A stretch of 32,820 nucleotides of DNA from a virus (lineage: Duplodnaviria > Heunggongvirae > Uroviricota > Caudoviricetes), in the IMG/VR virus record IMGVR_UViG_2541047822_000005; one strand, 5' to 3'. The notes beneath the pieces were generated by a model, which saw nothing but the letters and a program-made list of their open reading frames with translations, searched no databases and was not told the DNA's origin. Position 1 is the first letter of the stretch. Each line of letters starts with the position of its first letter. Position numbers and translations under genes: made by a program. Shown here one piece after another: positions 1 to 32,820 of the stretch.

Positions 1-483
1 ATGACGAAGAAAAAAGCACATAAACCTGGTTCAGCGACCATCGCGCTTAACAAGCGCGCCCGGCACGAATACTTTATCGAAGAAGAGTTCGAGGCGGGAC
101 TTGCCCTGCAAGGCTGGGAGGTTAAATCCCTGCGTGCAGGAAAAGCCAATATCAGCGACAGCTACGTCCTTCTGCGTGACGGAGAGGCATTTCTGTTTGG
201 CGCTAACATCACGCCAATGGCTGTGGCCTCCACGCATGTGGTGTGCGATCCTACCCGTACCCGCAAGTTACTTCTCAACCAGCGCGAACTGGACTCATTG
301 TACGGTCGCGTCAATCGAGAAGGCTATACCGTAGTGGCGCTCTCCCTGTACTGGAAAAATGCCTGGTGCAAAGTGAAAATCGGCGTCGCCAAAGGTAAGA
401 AACAGCATGATAAACGTTCAGATATCAAAGAACGCGAATGGCAGGTGGATAAAGCGCGTATCATGAAAAACGCCCACCGTTAA
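1..483 (+). CDS. smpB: SsrA-binding protein SmpB
   Basis: 160-aa ORF whose translation I recognise as enterobacterial SmpB; lies immediately upstream of ssrA as in the conserved smpB-ssrA locus. Confidence 0.95.
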
Positions 484-653: not shown

Positions 654-683
654 TGGTCATGGCACTCATGAATCTGGTATACT
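654..683 (+). promoter_or_regulatory. putative ssrA promoter (-10 TATACT near 678-683, weak -35 TGGTCA)
   Basis: Sigma70-like hexamers about 15-20 nt upstream of the mature tmRNA 5' end; read by eye only. Confidence 0.4.
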
Positions 684-697
684 TACCGTTACACATT

Positions 698-1060
698 GGG
701 GCTGATTCTGGATTCGACGGGATTTGCGAAACCCAAGGTGCATGCCGAGGGGCGGTTGGCCTCGTAAAAAGCCGCAAAAAATAGTCGCAAACGACGAAAA
801 CTACGCTTTAGCAGCTTAATAACCTGCTTAGAGCCCTCTCTCCCTAGCCTCCGCTCTTAGGACGGGGATCAAGAGAGGTCAAACCCAAAAGAGATCGCGT
901 GGAAGCCCTGCCTGGGGTTGAAGCGTTAAAACTTAATCAGGCTAGTTTGTTAGTGGCGTGTCCGTCCGCAGCTGGCAAGCGAATGTAAAGACTGACTAAG
1001 CATGTAGTACCGAGGATGTAGGAATTTCGGACGCGGGTTCAACTCCCGCCAGCTCCACCA
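698..1060 (+). ncRNA. ssrA: tmRNA (transfer-messenger RNA)
   Basis: Begins GGGGCTGATTCTGGATTCGACGGG and ends GGTTCAACTCCCGCCAGCTCCACCA; 363 nt with the tag-peptide reading frame region, matching enterobacterial ssrA as I recall it. Confidence 0.9.
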
Positions 1061-1070
1061 AATAAATCAA

Positions 1071-1103
1071 GGGGTTACGTGAAAGCGTAGCCCCTTTTTC
1101 TTT
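1071..1103 (+). terminator. rho-independent terminator after ssrA
   Basis: GGGGTTACG / CGTAGCCCC stem with a 6-nt loop, followed by TTTTTCTTT. Confidence 0.5.
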
Positions 1104-1183
1104 AGTAGTGGCGGCAAAATGGCGACAGACTTTTGCGTCCATCTTGCCTGTCGCCATCTTGAAATCATGCAAAGAGGTTTCAC

Positions 1184-1666
1184 ATGGAAGAACTTCACTT
1201 TGTTTACATCAATGCAAATGGTCGTATCGGTGTTCACTCTATACAGAGCATCAGTTATAGCGAAAATCATATACAGGGCATTTGTAAGAACACCGATCGA
1301 ATAAAAACCTTCCGAAAAGACCGCATTCTTAAACAGTACGATTCACCAGAACAAGCCATTCAGGAGTGCGCGTCATTCCTCCCCGAAAACTACTCACATC
1401 TCACCAAGCAGTTTGGTCCGAAAAAAAATACATTCGATGTGTGTTTCACCGGATTTAAGAAAGCAGATAAAGAAAGATTGGTTGATAAGGCGAATGAACA
1501 AGGATTAACGGTAAGAACCTCTGTAACCCAAAGCCTTCAGATGCTCTGTTGCGGTTACAATGCAGGCCCATCAAAAGTATCGGCAGCCAGGATGAAAGGC
1601 ACAATCATCATAGATGAACCTGGCTTTATACATTTTCTTGAAACGGGTGAGATCCCAGATGAATAA
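1184..1666 (+). CDS. hypothetical cargo protein with WYL-like N-terminal region and BRCT-like C-terminal domain
   Basis: 160-aa ORF with an AGAGG ribosome-binding site 7 nt upstream. N-terminal KTFRKDRI resembles the WYL-domain R-x-F-R-x-D-R-I motif; the C-terminal half aligns by eye with the LigA-type BRCT fold. AT-rich relative to flanks. Located between attR and ogr. Confidence 0.6.
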   Translation: MEELHFVYINANGRIGVHSIQSISYSENHIQGICKNTDRIKTFRKDRILKQYDSPEQAIQECASFLPENYSHLTKQFGPKKNTFDVCFTGFKKADKERLVDKANEQGLTVRTSVTQSLQMLCCGYNAGPSKVSAARMKGTIIIDEPGFIHFLETGEIPDE

Positions 1667-1667
1667 A

Positions 1668-1695
1668 AACCTGCCGTAGCAGGTTCTCTTTCTCA
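1668..1695. terminator. bidirectional hairpin terminator between the cargo gene and ogr
   Basis: AACCTGC-CGTA-GCAGGTT hairpin with a T-run on the minus strand and CTCTTTCTC on the plus strand, between two convergent genes. Confidence 0.5.
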
Positions 1696-1911
1696 AAAAT
1701 TCATATGCCCCTGACCACCTGGCAATGGATGTGGAGGAGCAGTAGCAATCAGTGCGGGTGTCACAATAAACCGGACCACTGTTTCATGGGTAACAAAAGT
1801 ACTCCCGCAGTTAATATTTTGGCACTGGCAGTAACGCTCTTTGGTGCTTTCAGTTACTTGAAAACTGCTCCTTGTGTGTGCCGCATGACCACACTTTGGA
1901 CAATTCATCAT
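1693..1911 (-). CDS. ogr: Ogr/Delta-family zinc-finger late transcription activator
   Basis: Translation from the internal ATG (MMNCPKCGHAAH...RYCQCQNINCGSTF...PHPLPGGQ) gives a 72-aa C4 zinc-finger protein resembling P2 Ogr; the track ORF is longer at 1693..1956. Confidence 0.85.
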   Translation of the reverse strand: MMNCPKCGHAAHTRSSFQVTESTKERYCQCQNINCGSTFVTHETVVRFIVTPALIATAPPHPLPGGQGHMNF

Positions 1912-1979
1912 ATCCAGATCCCTACCTTTGCTATCAGAATCATTGTAATGATACACAAAATATCAATATTGAGAACACT

Positions 1980-3080
1980 TTATTCCATTTCAAGATCATC
2001 AATCTTCACTTCGAGTTCAATACTGGTTGTAAAACCGTTATCCGGGCTGACGGTATGTGTCAGAGTCGTAATGGTCCATTCCGCATCATCTATCGGCTGT
2101 TTAAAACCACTGACCTTCACAGGCATTTCCGTGTAGAGATCTGCCCGCCCTTCTGCCAGTTGTAGAGAAAATGACGCAACGCCGCGTTGCAGGCGTTCCC
2201 ACTGCATTTTCGCCGCTCGTTCGGCGTTGCTCCGGTTGGCATAAGTGCGATTAAGTACCAGCACGTTTTCATCCGTACCCACCAGGTAATCGCCCTGCTT
2301 CGCTTCTGGCTCTTTCTTCTGCTTCTTAGTTCTGCGCTTACGCTTCACCGTGGTGCTTTCTTTCTTCGCAGGTTCGCGGGTATGCAACCAGCTGGCAATT
2401 ACGCCCGTGTAGGCTCCGCGATCTGCCAGGGTAAATCGGTGACTGTCGCCGTCCTTGCGTGTGATAGTGATCACTGGCAGAGGTTTACCAGTGGCGCTTT
2501 TGCCCTGCCCCTGCCGGATGAATAACAGATTGCCATTTTTCACCGACGCGATGGCACCGTACTGTCGCGCCAGCCGCATCAGAAAACTGCCGTCACTCTC
2601 ATTAGTCTGGTCTATATGCTCCACGGGCTTATCCGACAGGTCTTTACCCAGTGCCATCTTCAGCTTGTGCCGCGCGGCTATTTCCTTCACCACTTCCCCG
2701 ACGGTGGTCTTATGCCACGATTTTTCACGGCGGGTATTCAGCGTTTCCCTAAAATCAGCACTTCGCGCCCGGATAGTCAGGCGATCCGGTGCGCCAGTGT
2801 GTTCAATCTCGTCCACCGTGAATGCCCCTTTCGGGAAAAGCGGCTGCCCCTTCCAGCCCAGCGCCAGCGTAATGACCGCACCACGGCGCGGCAGCACGAT
2901 TTTTCCGTCGGCGTCGTCCAGCTCCAGATCAAGCTGGTCCGCTTCAAAGCCCCGGTTATCCGTCAGCGTAAGCCCCATCAGGCGTTTGTCCAGCACAGTG
3001 GTGATATCCTTCCCCTCAATACTGATGCTGAATGCGGGAGTTTTGTTGCCTTTGTTAAGCAGTTCAGAGCTGAAATTCAC
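1980..3080 (-). CDS. D: tail protein D (late control gene D family)
   Basis: 366-aa ORF in the P2 gpD position, overlapping the U stop by 4 nt (ATGA); translation resembles the gpD family. Confidence 0.85.
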   Translation of the reverse strand: MNFSSELLNKGNKTPAFSISIEGKDITTVLDKRLMGLTLTDNRGFEADQLDLELDDADGKIVLPRRGAVITLALGWKGQPLFPKGAFTVDEIEHTGAPDRLTIRARSADFRETLNTRREKSWHKTTVGEVVKEIAARHKLKMALGKDLSDKPVEHIDQTNESDGSFLMRLARQYGAIASVKNGNLLFIRQGQGKSATGKPLPVITITRKDGDSHRFTLADRGAYTGVIASWLHTREPAKKESTTVKRKRRTKKQKKEPEAKQGDYLVGTDENVLVLNRTYANRSNAERAAKMQWERLQRGVASFSLQLAEGRADLYTEMPVKVSGFKQPIDDAEWTITTLTHTVSPDNGFTTSIELEVKIDDLEME

Positions 3081-23766: not shown

Positions 23767-23849
23767 CCTGAATCTCCCCCCCCCTCCACTAAATGAGGCC
23801 GCCAGCGGGCCAGAGGCTGTGCCGGATTTTGGCCATTTTACCCCGTTGC

Positions 23850-23873
23850 GCGCGCTCGTATCCCCGCCACGCC
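23850..23873. other. cos site (cohesive-end region)
   Basis: The reverse complement of this stretch reads GGCGTGGCGGGG..., matching the start of the 19-nt cohesive end of phage 186 as I recall it; located between Q and the early region as in P2/186. Confidence 0.55.
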
Positions 23874-23916
23874 TGCCCGCTTTGTGTAGTGGTTTTCATG
23901 CACCTGCATGACATAA

Positions 23917-23942
23917 GCAAAAGCCCGCCAGTTCTGGCGGGC
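23917..23942 (-). terminator. putative terminator of the tum-like/dinI-like transcript
   Basis: Perfect 8-bp GC stem (GCCCGCCA / TGGCGGGC) followed on the minus strand by TTTTGC. Confidence 0.45.
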
Positions 23943-24076
23943 CTGAGCAAAAACGATCCTCAAACGATCATGCGATTTCATGCGGCATAGACATGCACAA
24001 CAGCACTAACGCCTCGCGTGGCTCGTTGTTCAACCTTGCGGACGGTAAAAACCAGTTTTATCGTCCGCAACGTTCG

Positions 24077-24310
24077 CTAATGTAACCAGCTGTCGTCCTC
24101 CCAGACCTGCTGCATTATTTCCATCACTCGCTTTTTATCTTCATCCAGTTTTAACCCGCTCAGCTCAACGCCGTTGGCACTGCCCTTACGGATACGAATT
24201 GCTGTTTTGGGATACAGAGGGCGCAAATTACGGTAAAGCTCGGATTCAAGGGCGTCCAGTGTAGCCTGGCTAATCTTCTGCTCTTTATCGATCATTATTT
24301 CAATGCGCAT
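24077..24310 (-). CDS. DinI-like protein
   Basis: 77-aa ORF whose translation resembles the DinI family; downstream of a LexA-boxed small gene. Confidence 0.75.
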   Translation of the reverse strand: MRIEIMIDKEQKISQATLDALESELYRNLRPLYPKTAIRIRKGSANGVELSGLKLDEDKKRVMEIMQQVWEDDSWLH

Positions 24311-24321
24311 ACAGATTTCCC

Positions 24322-24510
24322 TTAACTGGTTACGTCCATTGACCGGCAGTATTCATGGCTGCGGATTTTCGCCATCAGCTCGTCGGTCAATTCAGACACC
24401 CACTGGATAGCCAGCCGCTTTTCTTCGTCGCTGCACTCACTAGCCGCTACAAGCTTAATAAAAAAATCAATGCGCTGGAGCTTCAACGACTCCAAAAGAT
24501 AGTCCTGCAT
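24322..24510 (-). CDS. small LexA-regulated protein, possibly Tum-like antirepressor
   Basis: 62-aa ORF from the internal ATG, which has a strong AGGAGGG ribosome-binding site (track ORF is 24322..24537). Function assigned only by position and the LexA box. Confidence 0.5.
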   Translation of the reverse strand: MQDYLLESLKLQRIDFFIKLVAASECSDEEKRLAIQWVSELTDELMAKIRSHEYCRSMDVTS

Positions 24511-24558
24511 CTTCCCTCCTATCACGACCCCGGACATGCGTTAACTGTATGCATATCC

Positions 24559-24671: not shown

Positions 24672-27065
24672 TCAGTACCACTGGCGCCATTTGTCATCTT
24701 CCTGCAGTCGATGGTTGCGGTAAAAAATCCGTAGCCCGGCACCTGACGGAATGCTGCCACCACGCAGAAGCAAATCAATCTCAGATGCACTACCTTCAAA
24801 CCCTCTGGCAGTCAGTTCTGCCTCAAGCTGCAGGCGCTGCTGCTCCGAAATACTCTGTTTGAATGCTTTTTTCCGCTTCGGTTTTACCAGTCTTAACCTG
24901 GCTGTCAGCTCCCGGCGTTCCTTCTGGCCCATATTGTGGAGGTAATCGTGCAGTTCCTGCTCATTCATGGTTTTAATATCTGGCAAATCACCCCCTGATT
25001 TGTTCAGATTTTCAACAGGGGGACAGTTATTGCCACGAGTCCAAGGGGCGCAAGCGCCCTGGTCGGCTGCCGCCTCCTGAACGTCAACGGCCTTACGAAC
25101 CATTTTCCACTTCACGGCATGAGTGCAGATCTTGCCCTCTGCAATAGGTGACCAGATGCCATAAATACGAATGCCGTGATCGCCATAGGCGGTCGGCTCT
25201 TCGTTGATTTCATAAGCAGTTCTGATGAGGTGATATTTACGGGGAACCAGTACGCCGCCCTGCTTCATGATGTAGGTGGCAAAACAACCAGCATCAGCAG
25301 CAGCCAGAATGGCATCAAGACGCGGGTTATCCAGTACCGGCGCACCTGCTTTTTTGTCACCCTGTTGCCTTGCCGCCTGACCAGCCAGCAAGCGAAGTTC
25401 ACGGTAAGCCTGACGCCCCGGAATACCAAAGAAGCGGAATTGCTGAACACGATGCAGAGACGCCCAGGCATTCACGTATTCAGCGTTATCACGCAGAGAT
25501 TTACCCGTTTCCTTGCTGATCTCGCCAGCCAGACCACGACCGTCAATGTTCTTACTGATATATTTCGCGATGTAGCTTGTCGGCGTTCCTTTGCGCGGGT
25601 TAATCAACTCAGACTTAAAGCGCGGCCCAGTGTTATTGCCCAGCTCCTCGCGGTCTTCACGGATGGCAAACTTACGCAGTAATGCAGTGATGGCACGGCG
25701 GTCTTTTTTGCGCATGAAACACAACAGGTGCCAGTGAACTGTGCCATCATGATGCGGCTCAGCCACCCGCACGCCATACCAGCGCAACCCGGCTTTGTGC
25801 ATCGCCTTACGAAATGCAGCAAACATGCCGACCAGATAATCGCTGCTTTGTCTTACCGTCGCGTTTGTCCAGGTCGGGTTTGGTCTGCCGTTATTTAGCG
25901 TGGAATGGAAACGCGACGGACAGGTGATAGTGTAGAAAACGGCGCAGTCACCGCGCATTTCCGCGATAAGCTCCAGACCTTTAACACAGGCCATCATCTC
26001 ATTGCGGCGATGCGCAGGGTTGCTGCTGCTGGCGTTTACCACATCCTCCATGTCCAGCGTGTCGCCGTCTTCGTTCACCAGTTCATGAGAACGGAAAAAC
26101 TCCAGCGACTTACGGCGCTGCTCACGTTTATGCATCACGGCTTCATAGCTGACATAAGGAGATGCTTTTTTGCTGACTAGGCAAACAGCGCGCAACTGCT
26201 CTTCCCGCCATTCGCAACGCATCTTCCATAATTTCCGATACCACCAGTCGGCGCACAACATACGCGCCAGCGAACCCGGAATGAGTTCATAGGGCACGGG
26301 TTTACGGCGGTTTCTTTTCCGACGAAGTTTCTCAAACGCAGGCGGGATAACATCCAGACGCAGGGTTTCCGCAGCCACCTTTTCCCATGTCTTGCGGATT
26401 TCTTCTGGCTTAACGTCATCGGTGGCGTACAAATCACCACAAGCGGCCTCAAGACACATGCTCATATGCGCTGCTACCAGGGTGGACAGGCGTTTCACCT
26501 GATCCTGGCTCATTTCAGGCAGGATCAGCAGCCCCTCCAGCCCTTGATGGCTTGCCATAAAACGGAAAGAAACAGATAGCTGACTGTCACGTACACAATC
26601 CAGTCGCTCCAGACATGGCTTAATCGTCTCACGCAAATAGCGGGAATAAGCCTTTGGCCTGCCCAGGCTGCTGAAGTATTCGATACGTTGCATCAGCGGC
26701 TTGCTGATATGAGAAGGCTGGGCGCTGACATCTGCCAGAATGACCATGTCCGGGTTAAAACGCTGCTGCTCATGCGCCAGCTTTGCCCGGCTAATGAGCT
26801 TATCCTGCTCCATTTCGCGCTGGACAGGATCACGGGATTCATTAAAGAAATAACGCTCCCAGACCTGCTCACTCAGTGCCTCGCGGCGCAGTTGTTCCTG
26901 CTCGTTATCGGCAGCGTACAGAGTGATCAGGTTTGAAAGTGCAGACTCCGGCGCAACTTCCGCCGGATCCAGATAAGGGTTAATGGCCTTTTTCGGGCCG
27001 TTCCATGAAAATGCTGCGGCAGCCTCGTTAAAGCCGCTAGAGTTGCTCATATCGTCATGACTCAT
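24672..27065 (-). CDS. A: replication initiation protein A (rolling-circle nickase)
   Basis: 797-aa ORF with gpA-family translation in the expected early-operon position. Confidence 0.85.
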
Positions 27066-27919
27066 ACACGCACCTCGTACACAGCAGAACTATCCACGCC
27101 ACGCGAAGGATCAAATCCCATCCAGCAGCGCGACCCGGAAACAGCAATGATTTCTGTTGCAGATTTACTCTCGCCAGCTGACACGCCGATGCTGCGTTTT
27201 GCCTTGATGTAGTGGTGAGTGAAATTGCGATACAGCGAACGGATCAGGGATGTGTCACTGTTAGAAACAATGACCGGATGACCTTCTGATGATCGATATT
27301 CAAGAACGGATGCCAGGTGATACTGGTCATCTTCAGTGAAGCCGTTAGTGTGATAACCGGAAAACGTGCCGTCATACGGCGGATCGCAATACACCACATC
27401 CCCCGCCTTCAACATCGCCAGCGTTTCATCAAAGCTGGCGCAGATAAACGTTGCTCGCTGGGCCTTTTCTGCAAATGCGCGAATTTCTTTTTCAGGGAAA
27501 TACGGATTTTTATAATTACCGTAGGGAATGTTGAAATGCCCGCTCTTGTTATAGCGACATAAACCACGGTAACCGTGACGATTGAGATACAGGAAATATA
27601 CCGCTTTCATGAAATCAGTAATTTCAGTTGAGTAATTAAACTCCTGCCTTATGTTGTAATAAGCCACCTCCCTGTTTGCGATCTCAAATAAAACTCTGGC
27701 GCGAGATATAAACGATTCACAATCAGAGGCAACCTTTTTATAGAGGTTGATTAAATCAGGATTAATATCCGCAACCAGATAGCTGGGGTAATCCGTCTCC
27801 ATCATCACAGCACAGGAACCCGCGAAAGGTTCAACCAGTCGCGGGCCAGCAGGAAGGTGTTTTTTCAGTTCGGACATAATGGCGGTTTTATTTCCCACCC
27901 ATTTCAGGATGGTGCTCAT
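27062..27919 (-). CDS. Dam-like DNA N6-adenine methyltransferase
   Basis: Conserved ILKWVGNK N-terminus, FAGSCAV S-adenosylmethionine-binding motif and DPPY catalytic motif. Start taken at the internal ATG, which overlaps the upstream stop in an ATGA arrangement (track ORF is 27062..27979). Confidence 0.85.
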
Positions 27920-28143
27920 ACAGCACCTCCGTTGTAATGTTTGCCTTTCAGCTCTGCGATTTCCTGACAGGTAATGCAAAGCTGCACACCCGGAATGGCA
28001 CGGCGGCGTGCTGGCGGAATTGGCGCTTCACACTCAACGCAAAGCACGCGGGACACGCCCGGCGTTTTGGCACGGGCAGCACGGATATGACGTTGGCGTT
28101 CTTCTTCAACTCGCTGCTGTACGAGATCCATTGCATCAGCCAT
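27916..28143 (-). CDS. TraR/DksA-family C4 zinc-finger protein
   Basis: 75-aa ORF with CxxC-N17-CxxC (CVECEAP...CITCQ). Confidence 0.7.
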   Translation of the reverse strand: MADAMDLVQQRVEEERQRHIRAARAKTPGVSRVLCVECEAPIPPARRRAIPGVQLCITCQEIAELKGKHYNGGAV

Positions 28144-29748: not shown

Positions 29749-29991
29749 TTACTTACCAACAATGACGCGGAAGTTGGAATGACCGAGGGATTCACGGACC
29801 TGATCGGTTTTGTACATTAAATAACGCAGGCTTACGCGGCCTTTGTTTTTTTCTTTCTTGACCATGTATTTAGCAAGCTGACCATGGTGAATTTTTTGAT
29901 ACACGGAGCCGCGGGAGATACCTTCCCATTCCGCGAACTCAGCAGGCGTTGCCATCTCTTTTGGTACACGAATTGAAATATCAGTACTCAT
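29749..29991 (-). CDS. apl: Apl/Cox-like excisionase and transcription regulator
   Basis: 80-aa basic helix-turn-helix protein, first gene of the lytic operon, divergent from cI. Confidence 0.7.
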   Translation of the reverse strand: MSTDISIRVPKEMATPAEFAEWEGISRGSVYQKIHHGQLAKYMVKKEKNKGRVSLRYLMYKTDQVRESLGHSNFRVIVGK

Positions 29992-30101: not shown

Positions 30102-30740
30102 TTGATTATGAGTTTAATCAAGGCGGGGAATGATAGTGGTGGGCGCGATGCGATTAATAGGCTTATTAAGGCTTACAACTTCAGCTCACGACAGCAGCTC
30201 TGCGAACATCTGGAAGTATCAAAAAGCACTATGGCTAACAGATACTTAAGGGATAGCTTTCCTGCCGAATGGGTAATCCAATGTGCCCTTGAAACAGGAG
30301 CTTCCCTTCTATGGCTGGCTACTGGTCAAGGAGATATGTATGCGTGTGAGAACGAAGAAACAAATCTCAAAAATGAACCTCCCGTCACTGTAAGACCACT
30401 TTCTAAGATCGTTGCTCCTAGCATCAAACGTGTTGAACTGAAGAACGGCGAACTGCAGCCAAGTGATGAAATTCTTCTTGATAGCAGCCTGCTCGATGGT
30501 GACTCATCCAACGCTTTATTTGTTAAAACAGCTAATGATAGCTTTGTAGTGGATACGTCTGTTAAACAAGTCAGTAATGGCTTCTGGTTAGTCGATATGG
30601 ACGGAGTTAAAAGCATCGTCAAAATTGCGCGCATACCCGGAAACAAAATAGTAGTTAACCAAGATGACACTTCATTTGAATGTTCTGTAGATGATGTGGA
30701 AGTCGTAGGACGTGCAGTCAAAGTAATCAAGAACCTCTAA
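30102..30740 (+). CDS. cI: CI-like immunity repressor (186 type)
   Basis: 212-aa ORF with an N-terminal helix-turn-helix and a distinct C-terminal domain; upstream of and co-oriented with int. Confidence 0.75.
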   Translation: MIMSLIKAGNDSGGRDAINRLIKAYNFSSRQQLCEHLEVSKSTMANRYLRDSFPAEWVIQCALETGASLLWLATGQGDMYACENEETNLKNEPPVTVRPLSKIVAPSIKRVELKNGELQPSDEILLDSSLLDGDSSNALFVKTANDSFVVDTSVKQVSNGFWLVDMDGVKSIVKIARIPGNKIVVNQDDTSFECSVDDVEVVGRAVKVIKNL

Positions 30741-30743
30741 CTT

Positions 30744-31784
30744 ATGACCATCAGAAAACAGCCGAACGGAAAATGGTTGTGTGAGTGCTATCCCAATGGA
30801 CGCAATGGTAAGCGCGTGCGTAAGCAATTTGCTACCAAAGGCGAAGCCATTGCGTTTGAAAGCTTCACAATGGAAGAAGTGAACAAAAAACCATGGCTAG
30901 GGGAAAAGGAAGATCGGCGACATCTATCAGAATTAATTGAGCTGTGGTATTCCCTGTATGGTCAAACACTCGCAGACCCCAAGCGCCTCATGGCGAAACT
31001 TAGAATTATCTGTAATGGTCTAGGCGATCCCATCGCCTCAGAACTGACAGCTGGTGAGTTTACGAAATACCGCGAAGCACGGTTAAAAGGTGAAGTACGA
31101 AATGAAGATGGCACGCTTATGTCGCCCGTTAAGCCCCGCACGGTAAATCTTGAACAGCGCAACCTATCATCTGTTTTTGGTACACTGAAAAAGCTGGGCC
31201 ACTGGTCAGCCCCCAACCCGCTTGCTGGGCTGCCAACATTTAAAATTGCTGAGGGTGAATTGGCGTTCCTGACCCCGGAAGAAATTAAACGTCTGCTGGA
31301 TGCCTGTGCTGATTCTCAAAGCCCCAGTCTGCTGATGATTGCAAAAATATGCTTGGCCACCGGCGCACGCTGGAGCGAAGCCGAAAACCTACAGAGTCAT
31401 CAGGTATCAAAATACCGTATCACTTATACCAAGACTAAAGGAAAGAAAAACCGAACAGTGCCTATTTCAAAGGATTTATATGAAGAACTGCCTAAGAATA
31501 GGGGAAAATTATTTACACCTTGTAGGAAAGCTTTTGAACGTGCGGTAAAACGAGCTGGTATCGAGCTACCAGAAGGGCAATGCACACACGTATTACGACA
31601 TACATTTGCAAGTCACTTTATGATGAATGGCGGAAACATACTGGTGCTGCGCGATATTCTGGGCCATGTCGATATAAAAATGACAATGATTTACGCCCAC
31701 TTCGCTCCCGACCATCTGGAAGATGCTGTAACCAAAAATCCTCTTGCTAACCTTGGATGGAGAAAATTAGAAAGTGCTTGTTAA
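30744..31784 (+). CDS. int: tyrosine integrase
   Basis: 346-aa ORF with the tyrosine-recombinase C-terminal motifs (R...HVLRHTFASHFMMNGG...LGH...MTMIYAH). Confidence 0.9.
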   Translation: MTIRKQPNGKWLCECYPNGRNGKRVRKQFATKGEAIAFESFTMEEVNKKPWLGEKEDRRHLSELIELWYSLYGQTLADPKRLMAKLRIICNGLGDPIASELTAGEFTKYREARLKGEVRNEDGTLMSPVKPRTVNLEQRNLSSVFGTLKKLGHWSAPNPLAGLPTFKIAEGELAFLTPEEIKRLLDACADSQSPSLLMIAKICLATGARWSEAENLQSHQVSKYRITYTKTKGKKNRTVPISKDLYEELPKNRGKLFTPCRKAFERAVKRAGIELPEGQCTHVLRHTFASHFMMNGGNILVLRDILGHVDIKMTMIYAHFAPDHLEDAVTKNPLANLGWRKLESAC

Positions 31785-31890
31785 TAACTATATCCAACAA
31801 TACCCATGGATATCGTACTTACTTATCATAATATATTTTTTATATATATGCCTTGAATTATATCTATGCGTATCAAAAAAAGGCTTTAAC

Positions 31891-32820
31891 ATGGATGAAA
31901 GGCCATTAACAAGTCAATACTTATTTAAACAATCACTTAGGATTCCTGTATTTTCAGCGATATACTTTGGTATATTTTCCTGGCTTGGACATTCCCCTCA
32001 ATTTGATAGTGAGGGCTTTAATAATTTCATTGCAATTAGCAAGCTTCCTATCGCCTTACTTTCTTTGTCCATACCATTTGTTGCTGTCGTAGCAAACATA
32101 CACCGCACAGTTCAAACAAACCGACAAATTGAGGAAACCAAGCAAAAGAATCTATCTGATAGCTACTATAGCCATCTAAAGTTCGTTACTGATTATTTCA
32201 CCAATTTACCTAACAAAACCATTAAACGCGAACGTCATTATGGTACTAAAGAGATAAGTTATAAAATAAACTACCCAATACATCTATATAGATATATTTT
32301 CATAAATAGCTCACCAGAGAAGGGACGGCCTAAAAATACAGATAAAGAATACATACGTGAAGTAAATAATCACTGGGTTGATATACTAAAAAACCTAGAG
32401 AAGATACATTCATCTAATCGTGGCTCTCAGTTTGCCGAAGTTTTAATCCGTCAAATGCAATCTCTTCATTCAATAGAAAAACACTTATCCGAACTTAATC
32501 GAATGCTTTGCCTAACTCCCATGGAGTTAAATGAACATGCAACTTTATACTTTGATGGATATGAAATGATTACTAACTTCATGTCCAGCATTGAACTTGG
32601 CGATACAATTGAAACCTACTTCAAATTTACCATTGATATTCTTGATATTACCGATAATTTCCTTTCATTCAAGGATGATGGCTCGTCTGGGCAAATCATT
32701 ATACTAGCAAGATTACTGAAAGATAATAATCCAGCTATCTTTGATGAAATTGTAACAAACAAAGGGAAGGCTCAACCTTCGTTGACCTACAATGGCGACA
32801 GATTGGCGACAGAACATTAA
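31891..32820 (+). CDS. hypothetical AT-rich protein with two predicted N-terminal transmembrane helices
   Basis: 309-aa ORF from the internal ATG (track ORF 31774..32820 overlaps the int 3' end). Two hydrophobic segments, IPVFSAIYFGIFSWLG and ISKLPIALLSLSIPFVAVVANI, are followed by a soluble domain; codon usage is markedly AT-rich. Confidence 0.6.
   Translation: MDERPLTSQYLFKQSLRIPVFSAIYFGIFSWLGHSPQFDSEGFNNFIAISKLPIALLSLSIPFVAVVANIHRTVQTNRQIEETKQKNLSDSYYSHLKFVTDYFTNLPNKTIKRERHYGTKEISYKINYPIHLYRYIFINSSPEKGRPKNTDKEYIREVNNHWVDILKNLEKIHSSNRGSQFAEVLIRQMQSLHSIEKHLSELNRMLCLTPMELNEHATLYFDGYEMITNFMSSIELGDTIETYFKFTIDILDITDNFLSFKDDGSSGQIIILARLLKDNNPAIFDEIVTNKGKAQPSLTYNGDRLATEH

Follow-up and report, generated by a model that had tools for sequence, protein, structure and literature searches.

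The stretch of DNA that we analyzed, 32,820 nucleotides in length and called the window in what follows, very probably contains the left attachment site (attL) of a P2-like prophage (Peduoviridae) of the Fels-2/SopEΦ type that is inserted in the ssrA gene of Escherichia coli. The left boundary of the prophage is fixed at position 1016, inside ssrA, and the right boundary is predicted at about 32952, just past the end of the window. This mode of integration is already well known, and the window is a new instance of a well-described system, that is, of textbook integration into a tRNA-like gene. The features of the host flank and of the left junction are as follows.

1 to 483, plus strand: smpB, the host gene upstream of ssrA (open reading frame; Pfam SmpB, 1.5e-57)
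654 to 683, plus strand: sigma-70-like promoter candidate for ssrA, TGGTCA-18-TATACT with an extended -10 TG (consensus scan only)
698 to 1060, plus strand: ssrA (tmRNA gene), intact (ARAGORN and Rfam RF00023)
1016 to 1062, plus strand: 47-bp att core of attL, ATGTAGGAATTTCGGACGCGGGTTCAACTCCCGCCAGCTCCACCAAA, identical to the attP of Fels-2
1069 to 1103, plus strand: phage-supplied intrinsic terminator for ssrA, with a 12-pair stem, a GAAA loop, and a TTTTTCTTT tail (terminator scan, folding, and comparison with phages)
1109 to 1127, plus strand: P' arm, two tandem arm-type repeats 11 bp apart, TGGCGGCA (1109-1116) and TGGCGACA (1120-1127)
1149 to 1156, minus strand: third P' arm repeat, inverted (TGTCGCCA on the plus strand)

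The host is E. coli, and the ssrA region was matched in all 5426 complete genomes of this species. ARAGORN placed a tmRNA gene, encoding the tag ANDENYALAA, at 698-1060, and the Rfam model RF00023 matched the same interval with 295.8 bits over model positions 1-374 of 374, without truncation. Window positions 700-1060 were 100% identical to the ssrA of genomes in which the site is empty. The sequence-only reading that preceded this analysis had described the phage genes ogr and D as abutting an intact ssrA; the gene is indeed intact, whereas the direct abutment did not hold up, as orf160 and the P' arm intervene.

It was found that the 47-bp core, which reads ATGTAGG...CCACCAAA, consists of the last 45 nt of ssrA followed by AA. 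The attP in the Fels-2 record is annotated as two halves, which when joined give a 47-mer identical to window 1016-1062, and the SopEΦ record is bounded at both ends by this same 47-mer. Matches to phage records begin exactly at 1016, identity with the downstream ssrA copy present in relatives begins at the same position, and exactly the same left junction between ssrA and prophage is shared by 165 of the 5426 complete E. coli genomes. The proposal of the sequence-only reading that the end of ssrA serves as the att core is supported by the identity of 1016-1062 with the annotated attP of Fels-2. The direct repeat of the ssrA end that it called for is present in relatives, but with a length of 47 bp rather than the 20-40 nt that it had suggested.

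To reconstruct the empty site, we attached the ypjA flank, which comes after the downstream copy, to window positions 700-1060, giving 761 nt. This sequence was matched at 100% identity over the 761 nt in all 25 genomes listed, and it was covered over at least 80% of its length in about 1386 of the 5426 E. coli genomes. Because the identity extends over the full length of the empty site, the insertion was precise. The many genomes with this empty site, together with the tandem arrays of elements seen at ssrA in relatives, lend indirect support to integration of the phage into this gene and excision from it. The comparison with an uninterrupted ssrA locus that had been proposed earlier could be made: the native sequence after the CCA of ssrA is ATCATGATTGG... 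(toward ypjA), without the hairpin of the window and also without orf160.

The prophage genes on which the integration model draws, and the outer part of the right-hand att site, are listed below.

1184 to 1666, plus strand: orf160, cargo between attP and ogr, 160 aa (weak BRCT match; PHROG 2561, labelled 'DNA ligase')
1693 to 1956, minus strand: ogr, late-gene activator (Pfam Ogr_Delta, 1.5e-20; RefSeq names under the match)
1980 to 3080, minus strand: gene D, baseplate hub/late control D (Pfam Phage_GPD, 2.5e-27; annotation under the match)
29749 to 29991, minus strand: apl/cox-type excisionase-repressor (PHROG 6912 and PHROG 575, excisionase, 4e-39)
30102 to 30740, plus strand: 186-type CI repressor (Pfam Phage_CI_repr and Phage_CI_C)
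30744 to 31784, plus strand: tyrosine integrase, 186/Fels-2 type (Pfam Int_N and Phage_integrase)
31891 to 32820, plus strand: orf310, low-GC cargo in the int-attP interval, 309 aa (GC 36%; PHROG 17460, function unknown, 4e-148)
32793 to 32811, plus strand: P arm of the right-hand att site, two tandem TGGCGACA repeats (32793-32800 and 32804-32811)

The attP of the phage consists of a 47-bp copy of the ssrA 3' end with arm repeats about 100 bp to each side and the phage's own hairpin terminator directly 3' of the core. In the model that we propose, the tyrosine integrase would have recombined this attP with the identical sequence in ssrA. After insertion, the 47-bp core would form the end of ssrA, and beyond it would come the phage terminator, orf160-ogr-D, and the remaining prophage. 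The original 3' end of ssrA would have been displaced to the far end of the element, after int-orf310 and some 85 nt beyond the window. Excision may be directed by Apl.

As to the position of the crossover, there is within the core no sequence difference that separates the parental sites. We favor strand exchange near the 5' end of the 47-bp block, at the equivalent of an anticodon-loop sublocation, because the block of identity reaches 22 bp upstream of the T loop and has an in-gene length of 45 nt. This is the length that anticodon-loop type sites in tRNA genes give by our own arithmetic. The division of tRNA-gene integration sites into classes A and J is taken from PMC4383910. With such a crossover, the last 45 nt of ssrA, which lie inside the att core, would be derived from the phage. 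A crossover of the same element in the T-loop heptamer TTCAACT (1038-1044), or else at the extreme 3' end, seems to us rather unlikely. The arrangement GCGGG-TTCAACT-CCCGC, in which the heptamer lies within an inverted repeat (GCGGG/CCCGC), does look like two classical core-type sites flanking an overlap of 7 bp, the Fels-2 record splits attP inside this heptamer, and the T loop is where the match to the displaced fragment begins at the right end of the CP4-57 element in E. coli K-12. However, the 22 bp of identity upstream of the T loop, which occur in every phage read, would be needless for exchange at the T loop, and the in-gene length is the one expected from a site of the anticodon-loop type. 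A crossover 3' of T357 of ssrA is also made unlikely by the finding that no phage attP has a deletion of this base (ΔT357) and that T and ΔT are each found together with the identical P arm.

The second att copy was sought in the window itself and then in related genomes. Neither the 25 nt that end ssrA nor the 25 nt that begin the att core recur anywhere in the window when up to 3 mismatches are allowed, and no word of at least 16 nt is common to 600-1750 and the remainder of the window. These mismatch-tolerant and shared-word searches bear out the earlier statement that there is no second copy of the ssrA 3' end downstream of int. The accompanying claim, that the second att copy lies beyond 32820, is supported by related assemblies, in that the second core copy starts 85 nt after the stop codon of orf310 in 15 of 15 distinct assemblies with the same int-orf310 module. 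These are CFSAN051542, six further complete genomes, and the ten loci obtained by an exact look-up of the orf310 protein, with distinct assemblies counted; some of the loci differ from the window by 0-11 mismatches over its last 3430 bp, and the others are at least 99.6% identical over its last 1821 bp. From the sequences of these relatives we infer the second att copy of the present prophage, and the 47-bp core is expected at 32906-32952 in window numbering.

The closest complete genome for the end of the module is that of strain CFSAN051542, which matches the final 1821 bp of the window at 100% identity. In this strain, ATGTAGGAATTTCGGACGCGGGTTCAACTCCCGCCAGC-CCACCAAT stands 85 nt after the orf310 stop and is followed by the ypjA flank. 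This copy corresponds to the ssrA 3' end from window position 1016 onward, minus one T, and a 25-mer search that tolerates only mismatches fails here because of the 1-nt deletion. The sequence after the second copy varies by assembly: it may be the native flank, a second P2-like prophage, or an island, either one with a P4-type integrase or a different one. Over the whole prophage, the best complete E. coli genome gave 96% coverage at 95.5% identity, and one draft contig has 0 mismatches to the module and is too short upstream of orf310 to span the whole window. The Islander definition (PMC4383910) asks for an intact tDNA, a similarly oriented displaced 3' fragment, and an integrase gene between the two; the intact ssrA and the integrase are found in the window, and the displaced fragment was seen only in relatives.

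We consider it very improbable that the prophage in this genome lost its right-hand att copy by a deletion or rearrangement after int-orf310 and became locked in, such that no repeat would be found just past the window. Related prophages do decay; in CFSAN051542 itself, the prophage is interrupted by IS1 and has lost a large internal part. Against such a loss, the core stands exactly 85 nt after the orf310 stop in every one of the module-bearing assemblies, whatever follows further downstream, and the window itself has intact P arm repeats at 32793-32811.

The arm-type repeats are arranged as expected of two halves of one attP. In the reconstructed attP, tandem TGGCGRCA pairs are located at -113/-102 and +93/+104 from the start of the core, with the inverted copy at +133. 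For the motif WTGGCGRCA, the window contains 8 occurrences where 2.1 would be expected, and 4 of the 8 are at the two att flanks. Phages of E. coli, Salmonella, and Yersinia do not differ in the tandem P' repeats, apart from a single base in the Yersinia phage vB_YpM_MLG42 (MLG42), whereas the third, inverted P' repeat is conserved in E. coli phages and is replaced at this place by a direct copy in SopEΦ and Fels-2. All related attP and attR sites that were read keep the tandem pair of the P arm at a similar distance upstream of the core, and the sequence beyond the pair is unrelated. In the window, this pair overlaps the last 30 bp of orf310, so that the outer part of the right att site lies within the window and its core outside. 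PMC3448106 gives the 186-type arm consensus as tgccGCCActt, the reverse complement of which is matched by the arm repeats, making them putative Int sites by sequence match. A 12-mer, AATGGCGACAGA, which is common to 1118 and 32791, was considered as a short att repeat and rejected, being a part of the arm-type repeats and of a length expected by chance. A scan with the IHF consensus gave one perfect site and one site with 1 mismatch, a result too unspecific for a claim.

The hairpin next to the core starts 8 nt after the CCA end of ssrA. Its stem spans 1069-1096, the U tract that follows (UUUUUCUUU) runs up to 1103, and its folding energy of -19.8 kcal/mol corresponds to z = -5.4, with 0 of 200 shuffled sequences folding as well. 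The segment 1069-1103 thus has the properties of an intrinsic terminator, namely a GC-rich hairpin with a U tract directly after it, located downstream of an RNA 3' end, and it would be expected from these properties to terminate ssrA transcription. The hairpin adjoins the 3' side of the core in SEN8, MLG42, SopEΦ, Fels-2, and Cartapus, and substitutions in the stem keep or improve the pairing, as in SopEΦ (a T·G pair changed to T-A) and in MLG42. The circular phage records of SEN8 and MLG42 show an unbroken series of int, P arm, core, hairpin, and P' arm. We read these two records as representing virion-derived genomes; the host of SEN8 is Salmonella salamae, and the MLG42 record gives Y. pestis EV76-CN as the host and a dog anal swab as the source. 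The Cartapus record had also been taken for a physical attP, but this was dropped, as it is a re-permuted prophage of strain LF82 (PMC9928086), and SEN8 and MLG42 were used in its place. In the native locus, the first plus-strand hairpin with a U run is found about 130 nt downstream, beside the convergent ypjA; it was detected by folding and had been missed by the terminator scan, in which the stem extension consumed the T run. Another island at the same site carries its own, different hairpin. Because the hairpin is absent from the empty site and is contiguous with the core in the attP of SEN8 and MLG42, the terminator is phage-supplied, which the sequence-only reading had raised as a possibility.

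That the element integrated elsewhere (for example, in an older island) and adjoins ssrA by chance, with the hairpin being the native terminator, has a next to negligible probability: the location of int at the ssrA-distal end, unlike in P4-type islands such as CP4-57, and the non-P2 open reading frame orf160 between ssrA and ogr would fit such an origin, but the phage matches start exactly at 1016, the empty site has neither the hairpin nor orf160, int, P arm, core, and hairpin are joined directly in the attP of SEN8 and MLG42, Fels-2 in strain LT2 is in the same orientation with ogr next to ssrA, and the first terminator-like hairpin of the native locus is about 130 nt away.

Insertion of a Fels-2/SopEΦ-type prophage in ssrA also agrees with what is known of related elements. 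SopEΦ and Fels-2 are reported in PMC3448106 to integrate into ssrA. They share with the window prophage the identical 47-bp core, a CI/Apl switch of the 186 type, the hairpin and P' arm (97% over window 1016-1128), and the orientation, with ogr beside the intact ssrA and int beside the displaced fragment. They differ in that the host here is E. coli and in that orf160 lies here between attP and ogr, where neither Salmonella phage has anything; furthermore, the int-attP interval holds orf310 here, a 403-aa YopC-like open reading frame in SopEΦ, and nothing in Fels-2. Cartapus (LF82 prophage 4, Elveevirus) and MLG42 have the same core, hairpin, arm repeats, and orf160, but between int and attP there is a RES-domain cargo gene in Cartapus and none in MLG42. 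Strain LF82 spontaneously yields Cartapus virion DNA at a low level (PMC9928086).

The cryptic prophage CP4-57 of E. coli K-12 has the same target, the same native right flank (the ypjA side), and likewise restores the 3' end of ssrA. It differs from the window prophage in having a P4-type integrase and a shorter core, with the K-12 displaced-fragment match beginning at the T loop. In tandem arrays, the P4-type int is located directly after the att copy that was used, whereas the int of the window prophage is distal to ssrA. Coliphage 186, which integrates in tRNA-Ile genes and is compared here from its description in PMC3448106, has the same type of integrase, the same arm consensus, and a long core that restores the target gene; the target gene and the core sequence set it apart from the window prophage.

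The integrase of the window has 92% identity to the Int of SopEΦ and 94% to that of Cartapus. The gene order in the window is ssrA-ogr-D ... apl-CI-int, and the circular SEN8 and MLG42 records show int-attP-(ogr)-D, in agreement with a P2-like order in which attP of the phage form lies between ogr and int. The real start of ogr is probably at 1911, because the homologous ogr of Cartapus is 219 nt long. The int-attP interval (31785-32820) is a variable cargo slot, the content of which is replaced or absent in related phages: it holds a RES-domain protein in Cartapus, the YopC-like open reading frame in SopEΦ, and an HNH protein in EC26, and it is empty in Fels-2, SEN8, and MLG42. Here it contains orf310, which ends on the last base of the window; the exact orf310 protein was found in 672 blocks of a public assembly index. 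There was no Pfam match to orf310, and PADLOC gave a weak '2TM effector' match (8e-05, residues 16-124). The attP-ogr interval is a second variable slot, occupied here by orf160, a gene that Cartapus and MLG42 also have and that SopEΦ, Fels-2, and SEN8 lack; in LF82, orf160 is expressed 15-fold above the prophage background (PMC9928086). The PADLOC matches being weak, we do not interpret orf160 and orf310 as defense genes, and PADLOC and Pfam gave no defense-system match for the small open reading frames at 23793-24537.

Elsewhere in the prophage, the segment 8960-10936 contains a serine invertase (Resolvase and HTH_7, 2e-53) beside an oppositely oriented alternative tail-fiber C-terminus (Gp53-like_C), together with tail-fiber assembly genes (Caudo_TAP). 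It looks like an invertible host-range segment of the Mu G/P1 C type within the tail-fiber region of a P2-like phage. A DinI-like protein is encoded between the portal and replication genes, and a D12-class Dam methyltransferase in the early region (24077-24310 and 27062-27979).

The second copy in CFSAN051542 lacks T357, which pairs with G3 in the acceptor stem (equivalent to G3:U70). The same deletion, ΔT357, is present in the displaced fragment of CP4-57, and PMC10107115 reports it as the lesion of the CP4-57 attR, excision of CP4-57 having been shown to inactivate tmRNA. Among the 15 assemblies with the int-orf310 module of the window, ΔT357 was found in one (CFSAN051542). In a sample chosen by alignment length, and hence biased, T357 was changed in 6 of 12 terminal copies, meaning those next to the native flank (four with ΔT, one with ΔT plus ΔA, and one with T changed to C), compared with 0 of 9 internal copies in tandem arrays. 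The deletion was present in 15 of the 60 best junction matches of Fels-2-type lysogens in E. coli, a list that was ranked by identity and therefore cannot show that other positions never change.

It was considered whether ΔT357 might be a phage allele, with a crossover in CCACCA. This was rejected, as ΔT was not found in any phage attP examined, the internal copies all have T, and an identical P arm occurs with both T and ΔT. Because of the absence of ΔT from phage attP sites and the occurrence of the same P arm with both alleles, the lesion is on the bacterial side of the junction. One hypothetical route would be integration of the phage upstream of an existing island of the P4 type, followed by later excision of the island, which would leave the ΔT fragment behind; the intermediate tandem arrays of such a route are observed. 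Tandem arrays at ssrA are frequent in general: what stands downstream of the same phage is either a second P2-like prophage or an island, some islands having a P4-type integrase (in one case with a SIR2 gene) and others being of a different kind. At the right end of the prophage in E. coli strain 1409 and four other genomes, RefSeq calls a 177-nt 'ssrA tmRNA' over the P arm and displaced fragment, and this is an annotation artefact due to the 47-bp repeat.

If the genome from which the window comes carries the T357 lesion and the crossover is 5' of T357, as the length of the identity block suggests, excision of the prophage would switch ribosome rescue from trans-translation to ArfA. We regard this combination as distinctly doubtful. 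Were it true, lysogenization would have repaired an ssrA gene that had been broken by an earlier island. We know of no description of either such an excision switch or such a repair of ssrA for P2-type phages in E. coli.

The exact left boundary and the predicted right boundary of the prophage can serve its annotation as well as experiments on its excision or curing. In this strain, the mature 3' end of the tmRNA gene lies inside an att core that matches phage sequences, and its transcription terminator is phage DNA. Loss or decay of the prophage at ssrA could therefore affect ribosome rescue.
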